Positions 22,187-58,383 of a stretch of DNA of 64,000 nt are shown here, piece by piece; positions within the stretch are counted from its first letter, which is position 1, and each line of letters starts with the position of its first letter. The position numbers were made by a program, and so were the translations under genes. Source of the stretch: a virus (Duplodnaviria > Heunggongvirae > Uroviricota > Caudoviricetes); IMG/VR virus record IMGVR_UViG_3300007747_000008, positions 45,828-109,827 of that record; one strand, written 5' to 3'. The notes beneath the pieces are model-generated. The model worked only from the letters and a program-made list of their open reading frames with translations. It made no database searches and was not told the origin of the DNA.

Positions 22187-23932
22187 ATGAGTTGGATAAG
22201 ACAAATGACAACTGCGAGGTCAAAAGTATCGGCCTCCAAAATGGAACAAGGTAAAAGTACTTCTAAAACTACTGGTTCCAAATCTAACTACGCTTCATAC
22301 TTACCGGTTGTATATACCGGTTTGTCTAACCGTACTGATAGATACCGACAATATGACCAAATGGATCAGGATCCAGAAATTCGAACAGCTTTAGACATTA
22401 TTTCTGATTTTTGTACTCAAAGTATAGAAGACTATGGCCTACCATTTAAAATTAGATATAAAGATAAAATTGGCGACTCTGAAGTAACTACTCTAGAAGA
22501 TAGATTGGAATCATGGGCTGACCAAAATGACTTTAAAACTAGAATATATGAAATCGTACGAGGACTTCTTAAGTACGGTGACCAATTCTTTATTCGAGAT
22601 CCAGAAACTATGGATTGGGTATGGGTTAACCCTGCGAACGTAGAGGGTGTTTTTGTAAACGAAGAAACTGGTAAAAATCCAGTAGCTTACTTTATGAGAG
22701 ATGTATCCTATAATATGCAAGATAAAATCTTCTCCAACCTACAAGTTGGATTTGATAAAATGGCATATCCGGGTTCTTTACCAAATGCTTTAAGTGCCGG
22801 TGCCAGCCAATTCGGTGGTATGGGTGGTGGTTATGCTAATGCCGGAAATGCAAATAGTGCTGACCCATTTAATATGGCAGCAGGTAGAAAGGATGTCATT
22901 CCAATCGCAGCAGAACATGTTGTTCATTTAACATTAAATACCGGACAAGACCCAGTATGGCCTTTCGGTACTAGTATACTAGAAAATATATTTAAAGTAT
23001 ACAAACAAAAAGAATTACTTGAAGACAGTATCATAATTTATCGTGTTCAACGTGCTCCTGAACGTCGTGTATTTAAAATCGATGTAGGTGAAATGCAAAC
23101 TCACCAAGCAATGGCATATGTAGAACGATTTAAGAATGAAATTCACCAACGTAGAATTCCTTCTAATAAAGGTGGCAGTACTTCATTAATGGATGCAGCA
23201 TACAACCCATTAAGTATTCTAGAAGACTATTTCTTCCCTCAGTCATCTGAAGGTCGTGGTAGCTCAGTGGAAACTTTACCGGGTGGTGATAACTTAGGTC
23301 AAATAGATGACTTGCGTTATTTTAATAACCAATTAATTCGTGGATTACAAATCCCAGCATCATATCTACCACAAGGTCCAGATGATGGTGGTGTAGCGTT
23401 ATTTGGTGATGGTGCAACACAAGCAATGGCAAGTGAATTACGCTTTAATAACCAATGTATGCGTTATCAGCGTTTAGTTGCTCGTGTATTTGATATGGAA
23501 TTCAAACGTTATATGGTTAAGAATGGTTATAGCATTAGTGCTTCATCATTCGAAGTTATCTTTAACCCACCAATTAACTTTGCTTCATATCGTCAGGCTG
23601 AGTTGGACGCTAAACTTATTAGTACTTACATGCCGCTTGATGGTCTACGTTATATGTCTAAACAAACCATTCTTAAGAAAATGGGCTTTGACCAAGATGA
23701 TATAGTAGAGAACGAACAAAATTGGATGATGGAAAATCCAGATGCTATGAATCAACAGCCAAATTCAGACGGTGAAGCAGGTCTTCAATCAGTCGGTATT
23801 GATGCTCCAAATGATCCGGGGCAAGATTTAGGAATGGACGCTGATGGAAATATGGAAAGTGCTGATAAAGAGTTCCAAGAATTAGCAGGAAATGGTGATT
23901 TTAATCCTAATAATTTAGGTAGTTCTTTCTAA
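22187..23932 (+). CDS. Portal protein, gp20-like
   Basis: GTSILENIFKVYKQKELLEDSIIIYRVQRAPERRVFKIDVG...EDYFFP...VETLPGGDNLGQIDDLRYF matches T4 gp20; start at ATG 22187 (GGAG RBS). Confidence 0.95.
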   Translation: MSWIRQMTTARSKVSASKMEQGKSTSKTTGSKSNYASYLPVVYTGLSNRTDRYRQYDQMDQDPEIRTALDIISDFCTQSIEDYGLPFKIRYKDKIGDSEVTTLEDRLESWADQNDFKTRIYEIVRGLLKYGDQFFIRDPETMDWVWVNPANVEGVFVNEETGKNPVAYFMRDVSYNMQDKIFSNLQVGFDKMAYPGSLPNALSAGASQFGGMGGGYANAGNANSADPFNMAAGRKDVIPIAAEHVVHLTLNTGQDPVWPFGTSILENIFKVYKQKELLEDSIIIYRVQRAPERRVFKIDVGEMQTHQAMAYVERFKNEIHQRRIPSNKGGSTSLMDAAYNPLSILEDYFFPQSSEGRGSSVETLPGGDNLGQIDDLRYFNNQLIRGLQIPASYLPQGPDDGGVALFGDGATQAMASELRFNNQCMRYQRLVARVFDMEFKRYMVKNGYSISASSFEVIFNPPINFASYRQAELDAKLISTYMPLDGLRYMSKQTILKKMGFDQDDIVENEQNWMMENPDAMNQQPNSDGEAGLQSVGIDAPNDPGQDLGMDADGNMESADKEFQELAGNGDFNPNNLGSSF

Positions 23933-27146: not shown

Positions 27147-28322
27147 ATGTCACAACTATTAACTGAATCTAAATGGGCTGCTGTAAAAGAGAAGCTTGTT
27201 GAAGGTCTAAAAGATAACCGTAAAACCGTTATGGAAACTGTACTAGAGAACCACCGCAAAGTAATGCTTCGTGAAAGTGCTTCCCAAGGTGCAACCTCCG
27301 CTGGTAACATCGCAACACTAAACAAAGTAATTCTACCAATTATGCGTCGTGTTATGCCTACCGTTATCGCTAACGAAATTATCGGCGTTCAACCGATGAC
27401 TGGTCCTGTTGGTCAGATCCACACTCTACGTGTTCAATATGCTGACAACGCACCGGGCGTTATCGCTGGTGAAGAAGCTCTATCACCATACAAAATCGCT
27501 AAATCATATACCGGTGAAGTGAACTCTGATAACGAAAACCCACGTGCAGCTCCTACTAGCCAACTAGAAGGTACTATGGGTCGTCGCGTAAATATCCGTA
27601 TTCTACGTGAAACCGTTGAAGCGAAATCCCGTCGTCTATCTGCTCGTTGGACTATTGAATCTGCTCAAGATGCTCAGTCTCAACACGGTATCGATGTAGA
27701 AGCTGAACTAATGGCTGCTATCGCTCAAGAAGTTACCACTGAAATCGACCAAGAATTGCTACACAAACTACGTGCTCTACCGGGTGCTGCTGCTGTAACT
27801 TATGACCAGTCTAAAGTTACCGGTGTTGCTACCTTCGTAGGCGACGAACACGCTGCTCTAGCTACTCTAATTAACCGTCAGGCTAACGAAGTTGCTCGTC
27901 GTACCAAACGTGGTGCTGCTAACTGGGCTGTTGTTTCTCCAACTGCACTAACTATTCTACAGTCTGCTACTACTTCTAGCTTCGCACGTACCACTGAAGG
28001 TACTTTCGATGCACCTACTAACGTTAAGTTTGTTGGTGTACTTAACAGTACTATGAAAATTTATGTGGATACATACGCCGACGACTCGACCGACGTGCTC
28101 ATTGGTTTCAAAGGTAATGCTGAAACTGATGCTGGTGTATTCTACTGCCCGTACATCCCACTAATGGCGTCTGGTACTGTAATGGATCCAAACACTGGTG
28201 AATTAGTGACCACTTTCTTAACCCGTTATGGTTATGTACAGTTGACTGATAGTACTTCATCCCTAGGTAACGCTGCTGACTACTACAGCAAAATTGCAAT
28301 CCGCAACGTAACCTTCATGTAA
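27147..28322 (+). CDS. Major capsid protein, gp23-like
   Basis: ILPIMRRVMPTVIANEIIGVQPMTGPVGQIHTLR...AKSRRLSARWT.ESAQD...EIDQE...FYCPYIPL...TRYG; late promoter GATAAATA 27094-27101. Confidence 0.97.
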   Translation: MSQLLTESKWAAVKEKLVEGLKDNRKTVMETVLENHRKVMLRESASQGATSAGNIATLNKVILPIMRRVMPTVIANEIIGVQPMTGPVGQIHTLRVQYADNAPGVIAGEEALSPYKIAKSYTGEVNSDNENPRAAPTSQLEGTMGRRVNIRILRETVEAKSRRLSARWTIESAQDAQSQHGIDVEAELMAAIAQEVTTEIDQELLHKLRALPGAAAVTYDQSKVTGVATFVGDEHAALATLINRQANEVARRTKRGAANWAVVSPTALTILQSATTSSFARTTEGTFDAPTNVKFVGVLNSTMKIYVDTYADDSTDVLIGFKGNAETDAGVFYCPYIPLMASGTVMDPNTGELVTTFLTRYGYVQLTDSTSSLGNAADYYSKIAIRNVTFM

Positions 28323-32781: not shown

Positions 32782-32805
32782 AGCCTCCTAGTATGGAGGC
32801 TTTTT
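32782..32805 (+). terminator. Intrinsic terminator
   Basis: AGCCTCC-TAGTAT-GGAGGCT-TTTT. Confidence 0.75.
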
Positions 32806-32836: not shown

Positions 32837-35800
32837 ATGTATATAGATGGATTTATGGAAAGAAAACGTACTGGTGATATTTTACATGTTGCAGAACGGG
32901 TAAATGGGCGTCGTATTCTACGACAATTTGATCCTGTTTATGAATACTATGTAGAATCACCAAACGGATCTTACAAAACAATTCACGGTACTATGGCAGA
33001 GAAACATACATTCTCTAACCAACGTGAAATGCGTAACTCCGTAGAATTACACCAAGGACATAGAATTTACGAATCTGATTGTAACGTTACTTTTAAAACT
33101 CTTGCAAAAGAGTATATGGGTAAGGGATCTCCAGATTTAAATATGGTGTTTTTCGATATTGAAACCGACTTTCATAAGAAACTCGGATATGCACCCCCTA
33201 GTAATCCATTTAACCGAGTGACAGCAATTTCGTTATATCAAAGCTGGACTGGAAAAGATTACGTACTTACTCTTGCACCAGAAGATATGAGTACAGTCGA
33301 AGCACAAGACATTGTAACTCGTTTGAATGCTGAAACTAATGATCCTAACAGTGTAGTACTTTTATATACTGAAGAAACTGAAATGTTTACAGACTTCTTT
33401 GATTTGATTGAAGATTCTGATATTTTATCAGGCTGGAACAGTGAGTTTTATGATATTCCGTATATGGTTAATCGTACGGAAAAAATCTTTAATGCAGCAA
33501 TGACTGCACGTTGGTGTTTGTGGAATCGCAAACCTATTACACGTGAAGCTGACATGTTTGGTAAAACTATTGTAACTTACGACTTGGTTGGTCGAGTACA
33601 CCTAGACTATCTAGCATTGTATAAAAAACATGCTGGACAAGTAGAACAGTCTTACAAACTTGATTATATTGCTGAAAAAGTAACAGAAGAGAATAAAGTA
33701 TCCTATGAAGGATCACTTGACAAGTTGTATCGAGAAGACTATATTACCTTCTTGCGTTATTCAAAGCAGGATAGTATTCTTCTTAAAAAGATTGACGAAA
33801 AACTTGACTTCATCAATCTACACAATCGATTGGCACATAAAGAGTGTGTACTAATCAGTACTACAATGGGTTCAGTAGCACTAATTGACACTGCTATTAT
33901 CAATCTTGCACACAGTCGTGGTGAAGTAGTATTTGACAAAAAACCACAAGAAGACGCACAGAGTGAAGAAGATGATCGTTATGATTATCTAATTGAAGAT
34001 GAAGATGATGGTAGTGATAATGAACCGGTATCTGCAAAAGCTGCGGGTGCATGGGTTCAAGATCCAGTACTAGGACTCATCGATTATCTTGGATGTACTG
34101 ACTTCAACTCTCTATATCCTACCGTGTTACGTGCATTAGGAATGAGTACTGAATGTATTCTAGGACAAATTCGACAAGACTATACAGAGGCACATCTTGC
34201 ACGACGCGTAGATGAACAACGTATTCGTTCTAAGTCTAAGAAGTTTGAACCAAACTGGACTGAAGCATGGCATGGTTTATTTGCTAGTGTAGAATTCACA
34301 ATGGTTCGTGAAAAGTCTAAAGAAACATTGGTAGTCGATTTGGAGGATGGTTCTAGCTTCCAAGTGACGGGCGAGGAATTATATAATATCATTTATGCAC
34401 CTGATAGTACTATTGTACTTTCCGCTAATGGTACTATGTTTGATAAAACCAAGAATGGTGTTATTCCTGAAATTCTAACTCAATGGTACTCTGAGCGTAA
34501 ATCACAGCAGAAAATGGTGATTGACTTTAAACACATCTATTCTGATGGATGGGAAATGCCAGAAACAGCAGTTGATGCTATAAGTGCTGCTATGGCTCGT
34601 CACAACCGTTCTGAGACGATGAAACGTTCTAACCTACACGAAGACGATCCTGTCTATCAAATCCGTCAGGCGTTGGTACAGAGCGATTTTGAGCAGGTTG
34701 GGAAGCTAATCACAGAGAATGGTCTTCTATTAGAAGATGGACGTATCAAATGTACTAAAGAAGAAAAAACCTACTGTAAGGCACAATCTGCATTTTGGAA
34801 ACAAAACCAACAGATTCGTAAGATTCTTCTAAACTCACTTTACGGTGCACTACTTAACAAAGGTTCCCGCTTCTTTGATAAGCGTTTAGGTCAATCAGTA
34901 ACCCTAACCGGTCGAAGCATGACTAAACATATGGCATCTAGAATTAACGAAGTATGTACAGGTACATATGATCACAGTGGTGGTGTAGTAGTATATGGCG
35001 ATACTGACTCAGTATATTTCAGTGTAGCTCACTATATGAAAGAACAAGGCTTACCATTTGATTTATCAAAAGATGAAGTTGTCGATTTGTATGTAAAAAT
35101 TGGTGATGAAGTTGGTGAATCATTCCCAGAGTTTATGGATGAAACTTTCAACACTGGTATTGAAAATGGTAAAATAGTTGGTGCCGATTTAGAAATGGTT
35201 GGTTCTCGTGGATTATTCTTGAAGAAGAAACGTTATGCTATCTTGAAGTACTGGGAAGATGGATTCCGTAAAGATAAAGGAGATTCACCGGGTGAAATCA
35301 AGGCAATGGGTCTAGAAATTAAACGTTCTGATACACCAAAGTATATTCAAAACTTCCTTGAAGAAACACTAATTGCATTACTAGTTGGTGAATCGGAAGA
35401 AGAGTTGCGTAAACGAGTTCGTGCATTCAAGATGCTATTCAAAGACAAACCTATCCAACAAAAAGGTCAACCTAGAACCGTTAAAAATTACTCCAACTTA
35501 GAAGAAGATTATAAGAAGACTGGGAAACTATCAGTTTCGCATGTACTTTCAGCTATTCAGTGGAATAAATTGCGGGAAATCTACGATGATCAATCTGTTC
35601 CAGAAGCAACAGATGGTACTAAGGTAATCGTTTGTAAGTTAAAACCAAATCCAATGGGAATAAAAGCTGTAGGCTACCCAATTGATTGTGCTGAATACTT
35701 ACCAGAATGGTTCTTAGATTTACCATTTGACGAAGATGGAATGGAACAATCAGTCCTAACCAAGAAGTTAGGTAATATATTTGGTATTCTTAATATGGAT

Positions 35801-35857
35801 ATCGCAATCAACGAAAAGAGCACACTTGAAATGAATAGTGGATTCTTTGAATGGTAA
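32837..35857 (+). CDS. DNA polymerase, family B (gp43-like)
   Basis: Exo motifs FDIET, GWNSEFYD; polymerase motifs DFNSLYP, KILLNSLYG, YGDTDS, KKRYA. Confidence 0.97.
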   Translation: MYIDGFMERKRTGDILHVAERVNGRRILRQFDPVYEYYVESPNGSYKTIHGTMAEKHTFSNQREMRNSVELHQGHRIYESDCNVTFKTLAKEYMGKGSPDLNMVFFDIETDFHKKLGYAPPSNPFNRVTAISLYQSWTGKDYVLTLAPEDMSTVEAQDIVTRLNAETNDPNSVVLLYTEETEMFTDFFDLIEDSDILSGWNSEFYDIPYMVNRTEKIFNAAMTARWCLWNRKPITREADMFGKTIVTYDLVGRVHLDYLALYKKHAGQVEQSYKLDYIAEKVTEENKVSYEGSLDKLYREDYITFLRYSKQDSILLKKIDEKLDFINLHNRLAHKECVLISTTMGSVALIDTAIINLAHSRGEVVFDKKPQEDAQSEEDDRYDYLIEDEDDGSDNEPVSAKAAGAWVQDPVLGLIDYLGCTDFNSLYPTVLRALGMSTECILGQIRQDYTEAHLARRVDEQRIRSKSKKFEPNWTEAWHGLFASVEFTMVREKSKETLVVDLEDGSSFQVTGEELYNIIYAPDSTIVLSANGTMFDKTKNGVIPEILTQWYSERKSQQKMVIDFKHIYSDGWEMPETAVDAISAAMARHNRSETMKRSNLHEDDPVYQIRQALVQSDFEQVGKLITENGLLLEDGRIKCTKEEKTYCKAQSAFWKQNQQIRKILLNSLYGALLNKGSRFFDKRLGQSVTLTGRSMTKHMASRINEVCTGTYDHSGGVVVYGDTDSVYFSVAHYMKEQGLPFDLSKDEVVDLYVKIGDEVGESFPEFMDETFNTGIENGKIVGADLEMVGSRGLFLKKKRYAILKYWEDGFRKDKGDSPGEIKAMGLEIKRSDTPKYIQNFLEETLIALLVGESEEELRKRVRAFKMLFKDKPIQQKGQPRTVKNYSNLEEDYKKTGKLSVSHVLSAIQWNKLREIYDDQSVPEATDGTKVIVCKLKPNPMGIKAVGYPIDCAEYLPEWFLDLPFDEDGMEQSVLTKKLGNIFGILNMDIAINEKSTLEMNSGFFEW

Positions 35858-35872
35858 AAGGAAGTCTAAAAA

Positions 35873-36367
35873 ATGACTAATATTTTTCAACGCATTGGGG
35901 AGGCATTGGCCTCCCAAGGTAGAATTACTTTAGTAGCAGCACGTACCCCATCAGAGGGTGAAGTACTAAAAATTGCTGGTTTCAAAAATGTGGGAAGTAC
36001 TGATATTGATGGTGATCTAATTGACATTTATGAAGTTAAAATTACACAAGTAATTAATACCCCACCAAAACAAATTAAAGTACCAATCAAAGACGAAAAA
36101 CCTTCATGGCCTTATCAAGATCCGTGGCCTAAAAATTATCGCTTGTACAGTAATAGTTCGTCTACGCCAAGTACTAATTATCGTGGAATTACATCTTCAT
36201 TAATGGATGCAGCTTATAATCCACTAAGTATACTAGAAGATTATTTCTTCACCGATACTGATGGGACTACCACGTTTAAAATTCAAGTTGATGAGAGATT
36301 ATCCGGTGAAGAAGCCGTTAATTTTATCAATGAGATCAAAGACGAGATTCAAAGTCGTCGGAAATAA
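35873..36367 (+). CDS. Protein with a permuted copy of the portal clip region in its C-terminal third
   Basis: SLMDAAYNPLSILEDYFF identical to portal; downstream FKIQVDE...KDEIQSRR similar to portal FKIDVGE...KNEIHQRR; AAGGAAG RBS. Confidence 0.85.
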   Translation: MTNIFQRIGEALASQGRITLVAARTPSEGEVLKIAGFKNVGSTDIDGDLIDIYEVKITQVINTPPKQIKVPIKDEKPSWPYQDPWPKNYRLYSNSSSTPSTNYRGITSSLMDAAYNPLSILEDYFFTDTDGTTTFKIQVDERLSGEEAVNFINEIKDEIQSRRK

Positions 36368-36378
36368 AAAACAAAAAG

Positions 36379-36409
36379 TTGGGACGTATGTAAAATAATG
36401 TGATATAAT
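36379..36409 (+). promoter_or_regulatory. Pre-replicative promoter (GGGACG-N17-TATAAT)
   Basis: TTGGGACGTATGTAAAATAATGTGATATAAT. Confidence 0.8.
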
Positions 36410-36465
36410 ACATACGTCACAACGTAAAAGATACGTTAATAACAAAATGGAATTGGAGATTTAAA

Positions 36466-37197
36466 ATGGATTTACGCAACGTACTACGCGACTTAGTAAA
36501 CACAACTACCGGCATGGAATTCTCTTGTATCGCAGTTTCAAGCGAAGACCGTGGAGAAGGTCAACGTCTTTACCTAGAAGCATACACTGATGATAAGACG
36601 CTAATTATGCGAGCAGAAACTAAAGAAGATGTACCTGAAGTCACCGGTCGTTTCGGTTTAGGTAATCTTGGTATGCTACAAGGTCTTATGAATCTAAAAA
36701 CTTACAACTCAGACTCTGCAAAGATCGCAGTCAATTCAGCGAATGGTGTTGTAAAAAGTCTAGCATTTACATCTGATGATGCAAGTACTAACTTTATTGT
36801 TCAATCGGAAAAATTTATTCCTGATCAACCACGCTTTACGCCACGACCATTTGATGTACAGGTTACACCTAGTGCTGCAAAAGTCGGTGAACTAAAGTCT
36901 TTCTCAAGTGTATTCAAAACTTTCTCTGCCTTAGTTACTCCTTATACTGAAGGCGATACACTTTATTTCCATGTGGGCGAAAAGAATAAATCAAACCATA
37001 GCGGTGCTTTAGCATTCACCAAAACTGACGGTGAACTAAATCTAGGTTATGGATATGCGATTGATCGTCTTCTTCAAGCATTGAACCGAGCTTCAAATGC
37101 TGAAGAAATCTCTTTAGGCATTACCAAGACTGGGATGTTAAACGTTACTGTTGATACTGGTATCACATTGTTTAAATTCTACATTCAAGGTTGCTAA
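36466..37197 (+). CDS. Putative sliding clamp (gp45-like)
   Basis: 243 aa alpha/beta pattern; RAETKEDVPEVTGRFGLGNLGMLQGLMNL resembles the gp45 AE.....FGIYDL..FL segment; near PolB. Confidence 0.55.
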   Translation: MDLRNVLRDLVNTTTGMEFSCIAVSSEDRGEGQRLYLEAYTDDKTLIMRAETKEDVPEVTGRFGLGNLGMLQGLMNLKTYNSDSAKIAVNSANGVVKSLAFTSDDASTNFIVQSEKFIPDQPRFTPRPFDVQVTPSAAKVGELKSFSSVFKTFSALVTPYTEGDTLYFHVGEKNKSNHSGALAFTKTDGELNLGYGYAIDRLLQALNRASNAEEISLGITKTGMLNVTVDTGITLFKFYIQGC

Positions 37198-37205
37198 TAA
37201 CTAAT

Positions 37206-37229
37206 AGGGGAACTTAGTTCCCCTTTTCT
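37206..37229 (+). terminator. Intrinsic terminator
   Basis: AGGGGAAC-TTA-GTTCCCCT-TTTCT. Confidence 0.8.
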
Positions 37230-45334: not shown

Positions 45335-46378
45335 ATGAAATCTCTAGCTGAAATTCGTGCTCAATTAAAAGCAGACGCAGACCGTAACGAAGCAATCAAA
45401 AACGGTACATTCACTGGCACCCGCCAAGCAGATGCGTTCCTAGCTTTCTGGAACATTCCAGAGAACCAAGCACTAAACCTACGCTTCCTACCAGATGCTG
45501 ATGAAAACAATCCATTCTTCTGGCGTGAACGTGACATGATTACCCTTGAATTCAATGGCGTTGTTGGTCAACATACCGATAAAGTTCGTGTTCAAGTACC
45601 ATGTAACGAAATGTGGGTTCCAAAATCTTGCCCAGTACTAATCGAACTACGTAAGTGGTATGAAAGTGCTAAAGAAACTGGCAACGATGAACTAAAACAA
45701 CTAGCTAGCAAATACTGGAAGAAAAAATCTTATCTACTACAGTGCTTCATTGCACCAGATTCAGTAGCAGTAAAAGATGATATGGCTCCAGAGAATCCAA
45801 TTCGCCGTGTACTAGTAAACAAGGAAATTTTCGATAAAGTAAAATCTATCCTAATGAATCCGGGAATCAAAGAAATGCCTACTCATTATCAAGAAGGTCG
45901 TGACTTTGGTGTTGTTAAAACTCGTAATGGTGGTGGCTTCAACAAATATGACATGTCTCAATTCTCCATGTCAGAGCGTCCACTAAATGCAGAAGAACTA
46001 GCGGCAATCGACCAATACGGTCTTTTCGATCTAGGTGAATTTATGCCTAAGCAACCGACTCCAGAAGAGTTGCAAGCTATCGCAGAAATGTTCGAAGCAT
46101 CTGTTGATGGAAAAGCTTACGACCCAGCTAAATGGGCATTTGCTTACCGTCCAGCAGGCGTTCAAAAACCAAGCGGTACAACTTCTACCACCACTACACC
46201 AGTACAACAGACTGTTGCTCAACCAACTCCAGCAGTAACTGCTCCAGTTGTTGAAACACCAACTGTGACTGCTCCAGTAGTAACTGCTCCAGTGGCACAA
46301 ACCACTCCAGCAGCAGCAACTAAACCAGCAGTATCTGCTTCTGATTTAGTAGCTCGTCTAAAAAGTGGTAACAAGTAA
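45335..46378 (+). CDS. Single-stranded DNA-binding protein, gp32-like
   Basis: LRFLPDADE...CPVL..L..WY...YW.KKSY...GRDF...YD.SQF core of T4-type SSB. Confidence 0.88.
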   Translation: MKSLAEIRAQLKADADRNEAIKNGTFTGTRQADAFLAFWNIPENQALNLRFLPDADENNPFFWRERDMITLEFNGVVGQHTDKVRVQVPCNEMWVPKSCPVLIELRKWYESAKETGNDELKQLASKYWKKKSYLLQCFIAPDSVAVKDDMAPENPIRRVLVNKEIFDKVKSILMNPGIKEMPTHYQEGRDFGVVKTRNGGGFNKYDMSQFSMSERPLNAEELAAIDQYGLFDLGEFMPKQPTPEELQAIAEMFEASVDGKAYDPAKWAFAYRPAGVQKPSGTTSTTTTPVQQTVAQPTPAVTAPVVETPTVTAPVVTAPVAQTTPAAATKPAVSASDLVARLKSGNK

Positions 46379-57938: not shown

Positions 57939-58220
57939 ATGTCAGGTGAAAAGAAAACTCTTCTTGATAGTATCTTTAACTATACACCAGAAAAAGGAAA
58001 ATTACAGGATTTCAGTTCCAAGGCTGATAATGCCATTAATTCTGTAATTTACTTACTTGAGTATATTGATACTGAATTTAATCATGAAGATGCTGAAGAC
58101 TTAAAGAAGCGTCTGTTTCTAAGTATTAAAAACAGAGACTATAAAAAGTTTCAGCGTGGATTAGATAATATAGCTCTTGATGAAAAAAGACTACCCAAGG
58201 GAGGGCGATTGGATGAATAA
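57939..58220 (+). CDS. Hypothetical protein
   Basis: 93-aa ORF. Confidence 0.65.
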   Translation: MSGEKKTLLDSIFNYTPEKGKLQDFSSKADNAINSVIYLLEYIDTEFNHEDAEDLKKRLFLSIKNRDYKKFQRGLDNIALDEKRLPKGGRLDE

Positions 58221-58383
58221 GAAACTTAAAGAGAATGCATCATCAGGGTCTACTAGTGCAGGTAACATTGCATCTTGTAGTACTGGACTTCATTTTCCAT
58301 TGTTCAAAAGAATGCCCGCTACCAATTTATTTGGTGGCTACAATGAAGTTGAAATGAAAAAGAGTAAAAAGGATAAAAAATGA
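58213..58383 (+). CDS. 56-aa protein similar to the capsid protein N-arm
   Basis: LKENASSGSTSAGNIAS vs capsid LRESASQGATSAGNIAT; GGAGGG RBS; overlaps neighbours on both sides. Confidence 0.75.
   Translation: MNKKLKENASSGSTSAGNIASCSTGLHFPLFKRMPATNLFGGYNEVEMKKSKKDKK

Follow-up and report, generated by a model that had tools for sequence, protein, structure and literature searches.

The clip of a phage portal is a hub, engaged by the packaging motor and then by the neck, and it is also a surface sensed by bacterial immunity. In phage T4 the clip of the portal protein gp20 comprises residues 279-358, which form three strands and helix alpha6; it is accessible from outside the capsid, and gp17 and gp13 dock on it, with N291, M292, R295 and K296 at the helix tip facing gp17 (PMC4493910). 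In the T4 portal-neck complex the C-terminal arm of gp13 slots in between a pair of adjacent alpha6 helices and one clip strand, and N323, along with N291, K309 and R311, contacts a neck-protein arm (PMC12929587). A synthetic gp20 peptide of residues 288-311, which covers helix alpha6, is described as a gp17 binder and an inhibitor of packaging in vitro (Lin, Rao and Black 1999, as cited in PMC4493910). On the side of the host, SpbK binds the clip domain of YonE, the portal of SPbeta, and an escape mutation lies within the clip (PMC11984713), Avs4 recognises portal monomers (PMC12642450), and RAZR assembles around portal rings. Here we describe ORF164, an open reading frame (ORF) for a protein of 164 amino acids (aa) that lies in 64,000 nucleotides (nt) of Caudoviricetes DNA (positions 45,828 to 109,827 of IMG/VR record IMGVR_UViG_3300007747_000008; hereafter the window), and that appears to consist of a small carrier domain followed, after a linker that is flexible, by a partial, circularly permuted copy of the clip of the phage's own portal.

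Alignment of the window portal to T4 gp20 (3JA7, 6UZC, 9LU6) with HMMER placed portal residue n at T4 residue n-10 up to the loop, and on this alignment both of the segments that ORF164 shares with the portal (Table 1) fall inside the T4 clip, within residues 279-358, in agreement with an initial annotation, made from the letters alone, that had equated them with it. The first segment, residues 109-126 (SLMDAAYNPLSILEDYFF), is identical to portal residues 332-349 over the full 18 residues, and BLASTP of ORF164 against the portal returned 19/23 identities (E 3e-10). For the second, residues 135-163, the best local alignment across the whole portal is with residues 295-322, at a Smith-Waterman score of 48 as against 25.4 +/- 3.7 for shuffled sequences, with 0/2000 shuffles scoring as high. 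In the portal, residues 295-322 come before residues 332-349, and in ORF164 the order is reversed. The swapped order claimed at the outset is upheld by this shuffle test, by a homologue (P0009) in which both swapped segments are separately significant against the portal (E 2e-15 and 1e-08), and by its occurrence across the gene family. Strand 3 is absent from ORF164; a copy that includes the inner clip loop and strand 3 (GRGNSVET) is present in P0006, P0008, P0009 and P0015, where GRGNSVET stands directly before RTFKIDVG and the helix. The spacing of strand 2 and strand 1 in the swapped-order members is 7-17 residues.

The T4 peptide 288-311 is the homologue of ORF164 residues ~140-164, and T4 N323 maps, in the HMMER alignment, onto the first Ala of the conserved DAAY in the shared peptide. 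The groove contacts of T4 map to the copied elements, and ORF164 thus keeps the elements that line the inter-subunit docking groove.

Table 1. Features of ORF164, its portal counterpart and the surrounding genes (positions in the window).
Feature	Position	Strand	Remarks
ORF164, small protein: carrier domain, linker and rearranged portal-clip copy	35873..36367	+	164 aa; sole long frame there
N-terminal carrier domain, aa 1-57, helix-strand-helix-hairpin	35873..36043	+	AlphaFold predicted local distance difference test score (pLDDT) ~80
Pro/Trp/Tyr-rich linker, aa 58-108, predicted disordered	36044..36196	+	pLDDT <50
Clip peptide of ORF164, aa 109-126, loop before strand 2 and strand 2	36197..36250	+	identical to portal 332-349
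Connector of ORF164, 8 residues, aa 127-134	36251..36274	+	stands where the portal has its inner clip loop and strand 3
Copy of clip strand 1 and helix alpha6, aa 135-164	36275..36364	+	homologous to portal 295-322, T4 gp20 285-312
Ribosome-binding site AAGGAAG	35858..35864	+	8 nt before ORF164 ATG, 1 nt past polymerase stop codon; read directly
Portal gene, 580 aa, Portal_T4 family, source of copied elements	22190..23932	+	Pfam E 1.9e-116; PDB matches 3JA7, 6UZC, 9LU6
Portal clip strand 1 and helix alpha6, aa 295-322	23072..23155	+	
Portal clip peptide, aa 332-349	23183..23236	+	invariant in 8 related portals
Family-B DNA polymerase	32837..35857	+	directly upstream of ORF164
243-aa neighbour	36466..37197	+	always adjoins ORF164-family gene; matches PHROG 12062
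Large terminase, 542 aa	42142..43770	+	
Terminator-like hairpins	32782-32801; 37206-37224		
Stable hairpin 3' of ORF164	36378..36423	+	folding z-score -5.0; holds promoter motif for next gene
Promoter motif GGGAC-N14-GTGATATAAT, perfect copy	36381-36409	+	
Copies of the promoter motif	13473, 18137, 32395, 36381, 45109, 45192, 50381, 55280, 61713	+	

Over residues 105-164 ORF164 resembles a T4-type portal clip (PF07230; 3JA7, 6UZC, 9LU6), being homologous both to strand 2, together with the loop ahead of it, and to strand 1 and helix alpha6. Unlike a T4-type portal, it is a stand-alone protein without wing, stem or crown, and unlike a T4-type clip it has its elements in swapped order, lacks strand 3, carries an acidic rather than a neutral or basic helix tip, and is fused to an unrelated N-terminal domain (N-domain); the tip that reads N-M-R-K in T4 (N291, M292, R295, K296) is E-M-H-Q in the window portal and E-L-E-E in ORF164. 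Against the PF07230 model ORF164 scored 13.4 bits, under the gathering cut-off of 22.9, over positions 245-280 of 433, and because it falls below this threshold and has no portal elements other than those of the clip, which stand in swapped order, it is not a portal. The idea that the whole of ORF164 is a shrunken portal was rejected, the N-domain having no portal homology (hhalign probability 0.2%). The T4 peptide 288-311 is like the C-terminal 25 residues of ORF164 in being the same clip helix, and it shows that a piece of clip on its own is able to bind terminase in competition with the portal; unlike ORF164 it is a laboratory peptide and no gene product, ORF164 has the strand 2 peptide and a carrier domain in addition, and the gp17-contacting T4 residues within the peptide are not conserved in ORF164. 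Searches of the literature for descriptions of portal decoys, clip mimics or anti-Avs proteins turned up no protein of this design, in line with the initial annotation, to which no described phage protein of the kind was known.

In their DNA the ORF164 and portal copies of the peptide differ at 6/54 positions, and every one of these differences, five at third codon positions and one a first-position TTA/CTA exchange, is synonymous. Single-base changes in the peptide codons are synonymous in 19.8% of cases, which gives 6/6 by chance a P of ~6e-5. The identity of the peptide and the silence of its DNA changes had been read off correctly from the letters, and the interpretation then placed on them, that selection acts on the peptide, is supported by the synonymous-only pattern. 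The flanking 54 nt on each side match between the two genes at only 21/54 and 13/54 positions, which is background, and the peptide is therefore no recent DNA copy. Third-position differences between the ORF164 copy and the portal (5/18) resemble those between portal orthologues of different genera (2-7/18); from such comparisons a recent gene conversion of the peptide can be proved neither to have occurred nor to be absent, and conversion would not be needed.

The peptide is also the best-kept block of a family whose members are otherwise 36-66% identical. With block conservation taken as the mean share of 19 sequences that have the majority residue, the values were 0.88 for the peptide, 0.72 for the N-domain, 0.55 for the linker, 0.42 for strand 1 with the helix and 0.31 for the connector; synonymous sites are saturated among the available orthologues, which are about 50% identical. 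In the portal itself the peptide does not vary, flanks included (STSLMDAAYNPLSILEDYFFPQ), across eight portals, among them those of phages in which the small protein has drifted (for example SILDDHLFS and SILSDYTLP) or is without the clip part. Since the copy drifts or vanishes while the portal peptide is invariant, the copy is under weaker constraint than the portal and is not homogenised by conversion; for the same invariance in all eight relatives, a comparison of whether each copy tracks its own portal has no power. In two portal fragments from T4-like relatives (P0045 and P0065), intein-like insertions start right after the clip peptide (..FFPQ, then Cys), a position that fits with the peptide as one of the portal's most constrained sites.

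The window is ~80% identical in DNA to the Salmonella phages Munch, 7t3, SE_PL and PHA46 and to Klebsiella phage fENko-Kae01, with farther kin in GAP32, 121Q, PBECO4 and jumbo phages of Erwinia, Serratia, Yersinia and Xanthomonas. Its source is a 173.8-kb IMG/VR contig of 48% estimated completeness, and the phage is a RaK2-like jumbo myovirus whose head genes are of the T4 type. ORF164 matches PHROG 25089 (E 2.7e-22 over residues 2-130). A word-indexed search gave 19 close homologues, some of them with precomputed PF07230 hits, a profile search of 1.84 billion representatives gave 71 matches to the family, and IMG/VR yielded only 4 related loci. The orthologues in PHROG 25089/36847 (CPT_Munch_291, 7t3_0466, ENKO_294, GAP32_258, 121Q gp612) share with ORF164 the position after the polymerase and the N-domain, and most have the clip peptide; they differ from it in that the Munch-like proteins add a C-terminal tail, GAP32 has the peptide only and 121Q has only a remnant of strand 1 and the helix. 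All are hypothetical proteins in GenBank. In the Munch-like orthologues (P0004-P0015; Munch L001:1501-2070) the extra tail is conserved as DSWTSYN..GNRD.RNW, and it is absent from ORF164.

Sub-profile scanning of 59 small family proteins (260 aa or less) sorted them by architecture. The order seen in ORF164, N-domain, strand 2 peptide, then strand 1 with alpha6, occurs in 18/59, plus 1 with a duplicated peptide, and the N-domain stands by itself in 20/59. The portal order, with strand 1 and alpha6 ahead of the strand 2 peptide, follows the N-domain in 3/59 (P0018, P0019, P0021); another 3/59 have the N-domain with strand 1 and alpha6, and 2/59 the N-domain with the strand 2 peptide. The 12/59 without an N-domain are 11 ordinary portal fragments from short contigs and P0073 (L028:492-764), a 90-aa stand-alone clip without carrier domain in which two tandem copies of strand 1 and the helix are followed by the strand 2 peptide, encoded among small unknown genes that cluster on a metagenomic contig of 2.9 kb. 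All the other members have the N-domain. In the portal-order members strand 1 and alpha6 lie exactly at the site that the Pro/Trp/Tyr-rich linker takes in swapped-order members, and the linker gives weak colinear alignments to portal residues 295-330; the linker of ORF164 may be a first copy of these clip elements, strand 1 and helix 6, that has decayed. The simplest history would be that an N-domain protein gained a portal-order clip piece, that a second strand 1 with alpha6 then arose by duplication on the far side of strand 2, and that the first copy decayed. On that history the family would form a rare natural series for the origin of a circular permutation, from portal order through duplication to decay of the first copy. 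The variants point to a modular, selected use of the clip pieces and not to decay.

AlphaFold, run for full ORF164 on the family alignment, left residues 59-110 disordered, gave pLDDT 38-65 around the peptide and placed a helix at 145-162 with pLDDT 77-80; the tail modelled alone formed three helices at a mean pLDDT of 68. A predicted complex of the full-length portal with ORF164, run without controls, scored 0.00, which speaks neither for nor against an interaction. For the N-domain, Foldseek against the PDB and the ESM Atlas, together with VIA-align wide, gave just generic small alpha/beta matches (Z <=6.1), among them the tail ends of GNAT acetyltransferases, R3H and Smr, none of which places it in a family, and the domain is single-copy in the source contig. 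A profile search of the PDB with the ORF164 tail returned only spurious protein A repeats.

That a member of the family is made as protein is known from fENko-Kae01, where liquid chromatography-tandem mass spectrometry of a >300-kDa retentate detected the orthologue ENKO_294 (CDS_294) at 5 spectral counts; the same retentate gave 13 counts for the polymerase and 106 for the capsid protein, and its authors caution that the preparation is no proof of virion location (PMC11218385). The gene is real, expressed and conserved in RaK2/Munch-like jumbo phages, and it keeps its place behind the polymerase in divergent phages: the synteny of polymerase, ORF164 family and 243-aa gene holds in Munch, GAP32, 121Q, fENko-Kae01 and two metagenomic phages. 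In the window 15 nt separate the polymerase stop codon from the start of ORF164. A scan of the window for the promoter-like motif GGGAC-N14-GTGATATAAT found 12 matches at <=3 mismatches against 2 expected; of the nine copies in Table 1, five are perfect, two have 1 mismatch, one is shifted by 1 nt and one is weaker, and the motif appears to mark one transcription class of the phage. The scan found none directly before the polymerase or ORF164. Judged by this layout, ORF164 is probably read from the polymerase transcript, and the 243-aa neighbour is predicted to have a strong promoter of its own. The initial annotation had placed ORF164 in a replication block and inferred early expression from it. 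The adjoining polymerase and the absence of an own promoter weakly imply such timing; the wider neighbourhood intermixes tail-fibre, virion, exonuclease and terminase genes, so the label is only loosely right.

Within the ring of the portal, each strand 1 pairs with the strand 2/3 hairpin of a neighbouring subunit, and the groove in which incoming proteins dock lies between adjacent alpha6 helices. With strand 2 joined directly to strand 1 and alpha6, one inter-subunit clip unit could therefore be rebuilt as a monomer. By analogy with T4, ORF164 might then be a soluble competitor for a clip-docking protein, either the large terminase or the neck adaptor, and competition for that ligand would delay or tune packaging or head completion. 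We tentatively rank this monomeric mimic of the clip groove first among the readings considered, as a possibility rather than an expectation. It is alone among them in having an experimental precedent for its class of partner, the T4 peptide, and it would explain both the retention of the groove-lining elements and the joining of strand 2 to strand 1 and alpha6. Several observations weigh against it. AlphaFold gave no confident clip-like sheet, either for full ORF164 or for the tail alone; the acidic E-L-E-E makes the copy unfaithful at the very site of gp17 contact; and 121Q, a Serratia BF-like phage and GAP32 are without one or both clip pieces, which, being missing in many relatives, must serve a dispensable function and be able to act separately. 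Next in rank, and doubtful taken singly, is an immune decoy or shield, in which a monomeric clip copy titrates portal-recognising host sensors and lacks the ring or full fold needed to activate them. Portal-sensing defence proteins (Avs4, SpbK, RAZR) are known, and the SpbK-YonE and Avs4 cases are alike in that a clip or portal monomer is the recognised surface, one for which a mimic could compete. The patchy presence and fast remodelling of the clip part among close relatives are typical of accessory arms-race genes, ORF164 is probably transcribed with the polymerase and so before or alongside the late proteins, and a second small ORF of the same genome copies a segment of the capsid protein. 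SpbK and Avs4 themselves, however, are host sensors and no phage mimics, and Nip, the counter-measure that is known, is no portal decoy, its binding site being the NADase domain. No sensor of this peptide is known in enterobacterial hosts, ORF164 matches no anti-defence family, and the copy could itself trigger a sensor. Gao and colleagues are said to have found in 2022 that Avs recognition runs over large fold surfaces and not over a 60-residue piece, which we count against a decoy. The broader form of the proposal, a clip decoy against Avs4- or SpbK-type sensors as part of a wider phage habit of self-mimics of head proteins, of which the capsid N-arm copy at 58213-58383 would be another instance, seems improbable.

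The partner might instead be the portal itself, with ORF164 docking free protomers as a surrogate neighbour and so chaperoning, capping or masking them until the ring assembles. Main-chain contacts between subunits of the ring are made by the copied strands alone and the portal is the one partner certain to recognise them, the two pieces occur independently in relatives as separate interface peptides should, and the tail, predicted to be poorly ordered alone, may fold on a partner. An identical copy of the interface, though, risks poisoning the phage's own ring assembly, and the short spacing between the elements in swapped-order members favours pairing within the chain; we regard this third-ranked possibility as unlikely. 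Less likely again is a replisome accessory with its core job in the N-domain and the portal peptide co-opted as a hydrophobic docking tail, for instance for a clamp, unrelated to packaging. It would account for the invariant synteny between the polymerase and the 243-aa gene and for the many small family members that consist of the N-domain only, and it could draw on SILEDYFF, which we take to resemble the clamp-binding tails of T4 and RB69 proteins. A docking tail, on the other hand, has no reason to keep the DAAYNP loop or strand 1 with alpha6, the motif is internal and not C-terminal in most members, and the clamp identity of the neighbour is a GenBank note that the sequence does not confirm. 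Small phage ORFs often come from illegitimate recombination, and several lineages no longer have the clip part, as one might expect of a neutral relic, a portal fragment captured without function of its own. We consider this very improbable, and the conservation pattern already contradicts it: the peptide is nearly invariant while its flanks vary, the DNA differences are all synonymous beside flanking DNA that cannot be aligned, the architectural variants are orderly and the protein has been detected. The probability that these readings leave over belongs to something not listed.

A clip copy that stands free, occurs in nature and is under selection would represent a new kind of phage regulator or counter-defence, made through self-mimicry of a structural protein, and it would offer a ready-made probe of the terminase-portal interface, which is poorly resolved in T4-like phages. 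The finding is directly testable in the cultured relatives Munch, 7t3 and fENko-Kae01.

In T4 the slot behind the polymerase is occupied by the translational repressor RegA. A RegA identity for ORF164 was considered and rejected: a Pfam scan at E up to 1 gave Portal_T4 alone, and no RegA structure was among the fold matches. The 243-aa neighbour carries, in fENko-Kae01, a GenBank note of HHpred similarity to the gp45 sliding clamp, a similarity that phmmer against the PDB did not confirm; despite this clamp annotation it gave 46 spectral counts in the fENko-Kae01 phage preparation, in the range of head proteins. The large terminase of the window covers just positions 435-890 of the 890-position PHROG 36964 profile, and some relatives must therefore have a much longer or interrupted terminase gene. 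Elsewhere in the window, a 56-aa ORF (58213-58383, + strand) copies residues 41-72 of the capsid protein (gene at 27147-28322; 15/33 identical, E 1e-6), a segment near the expected prohead-protease cleavage site, which gives the genome, beside ORF164, another small self-mimic of a head protein.
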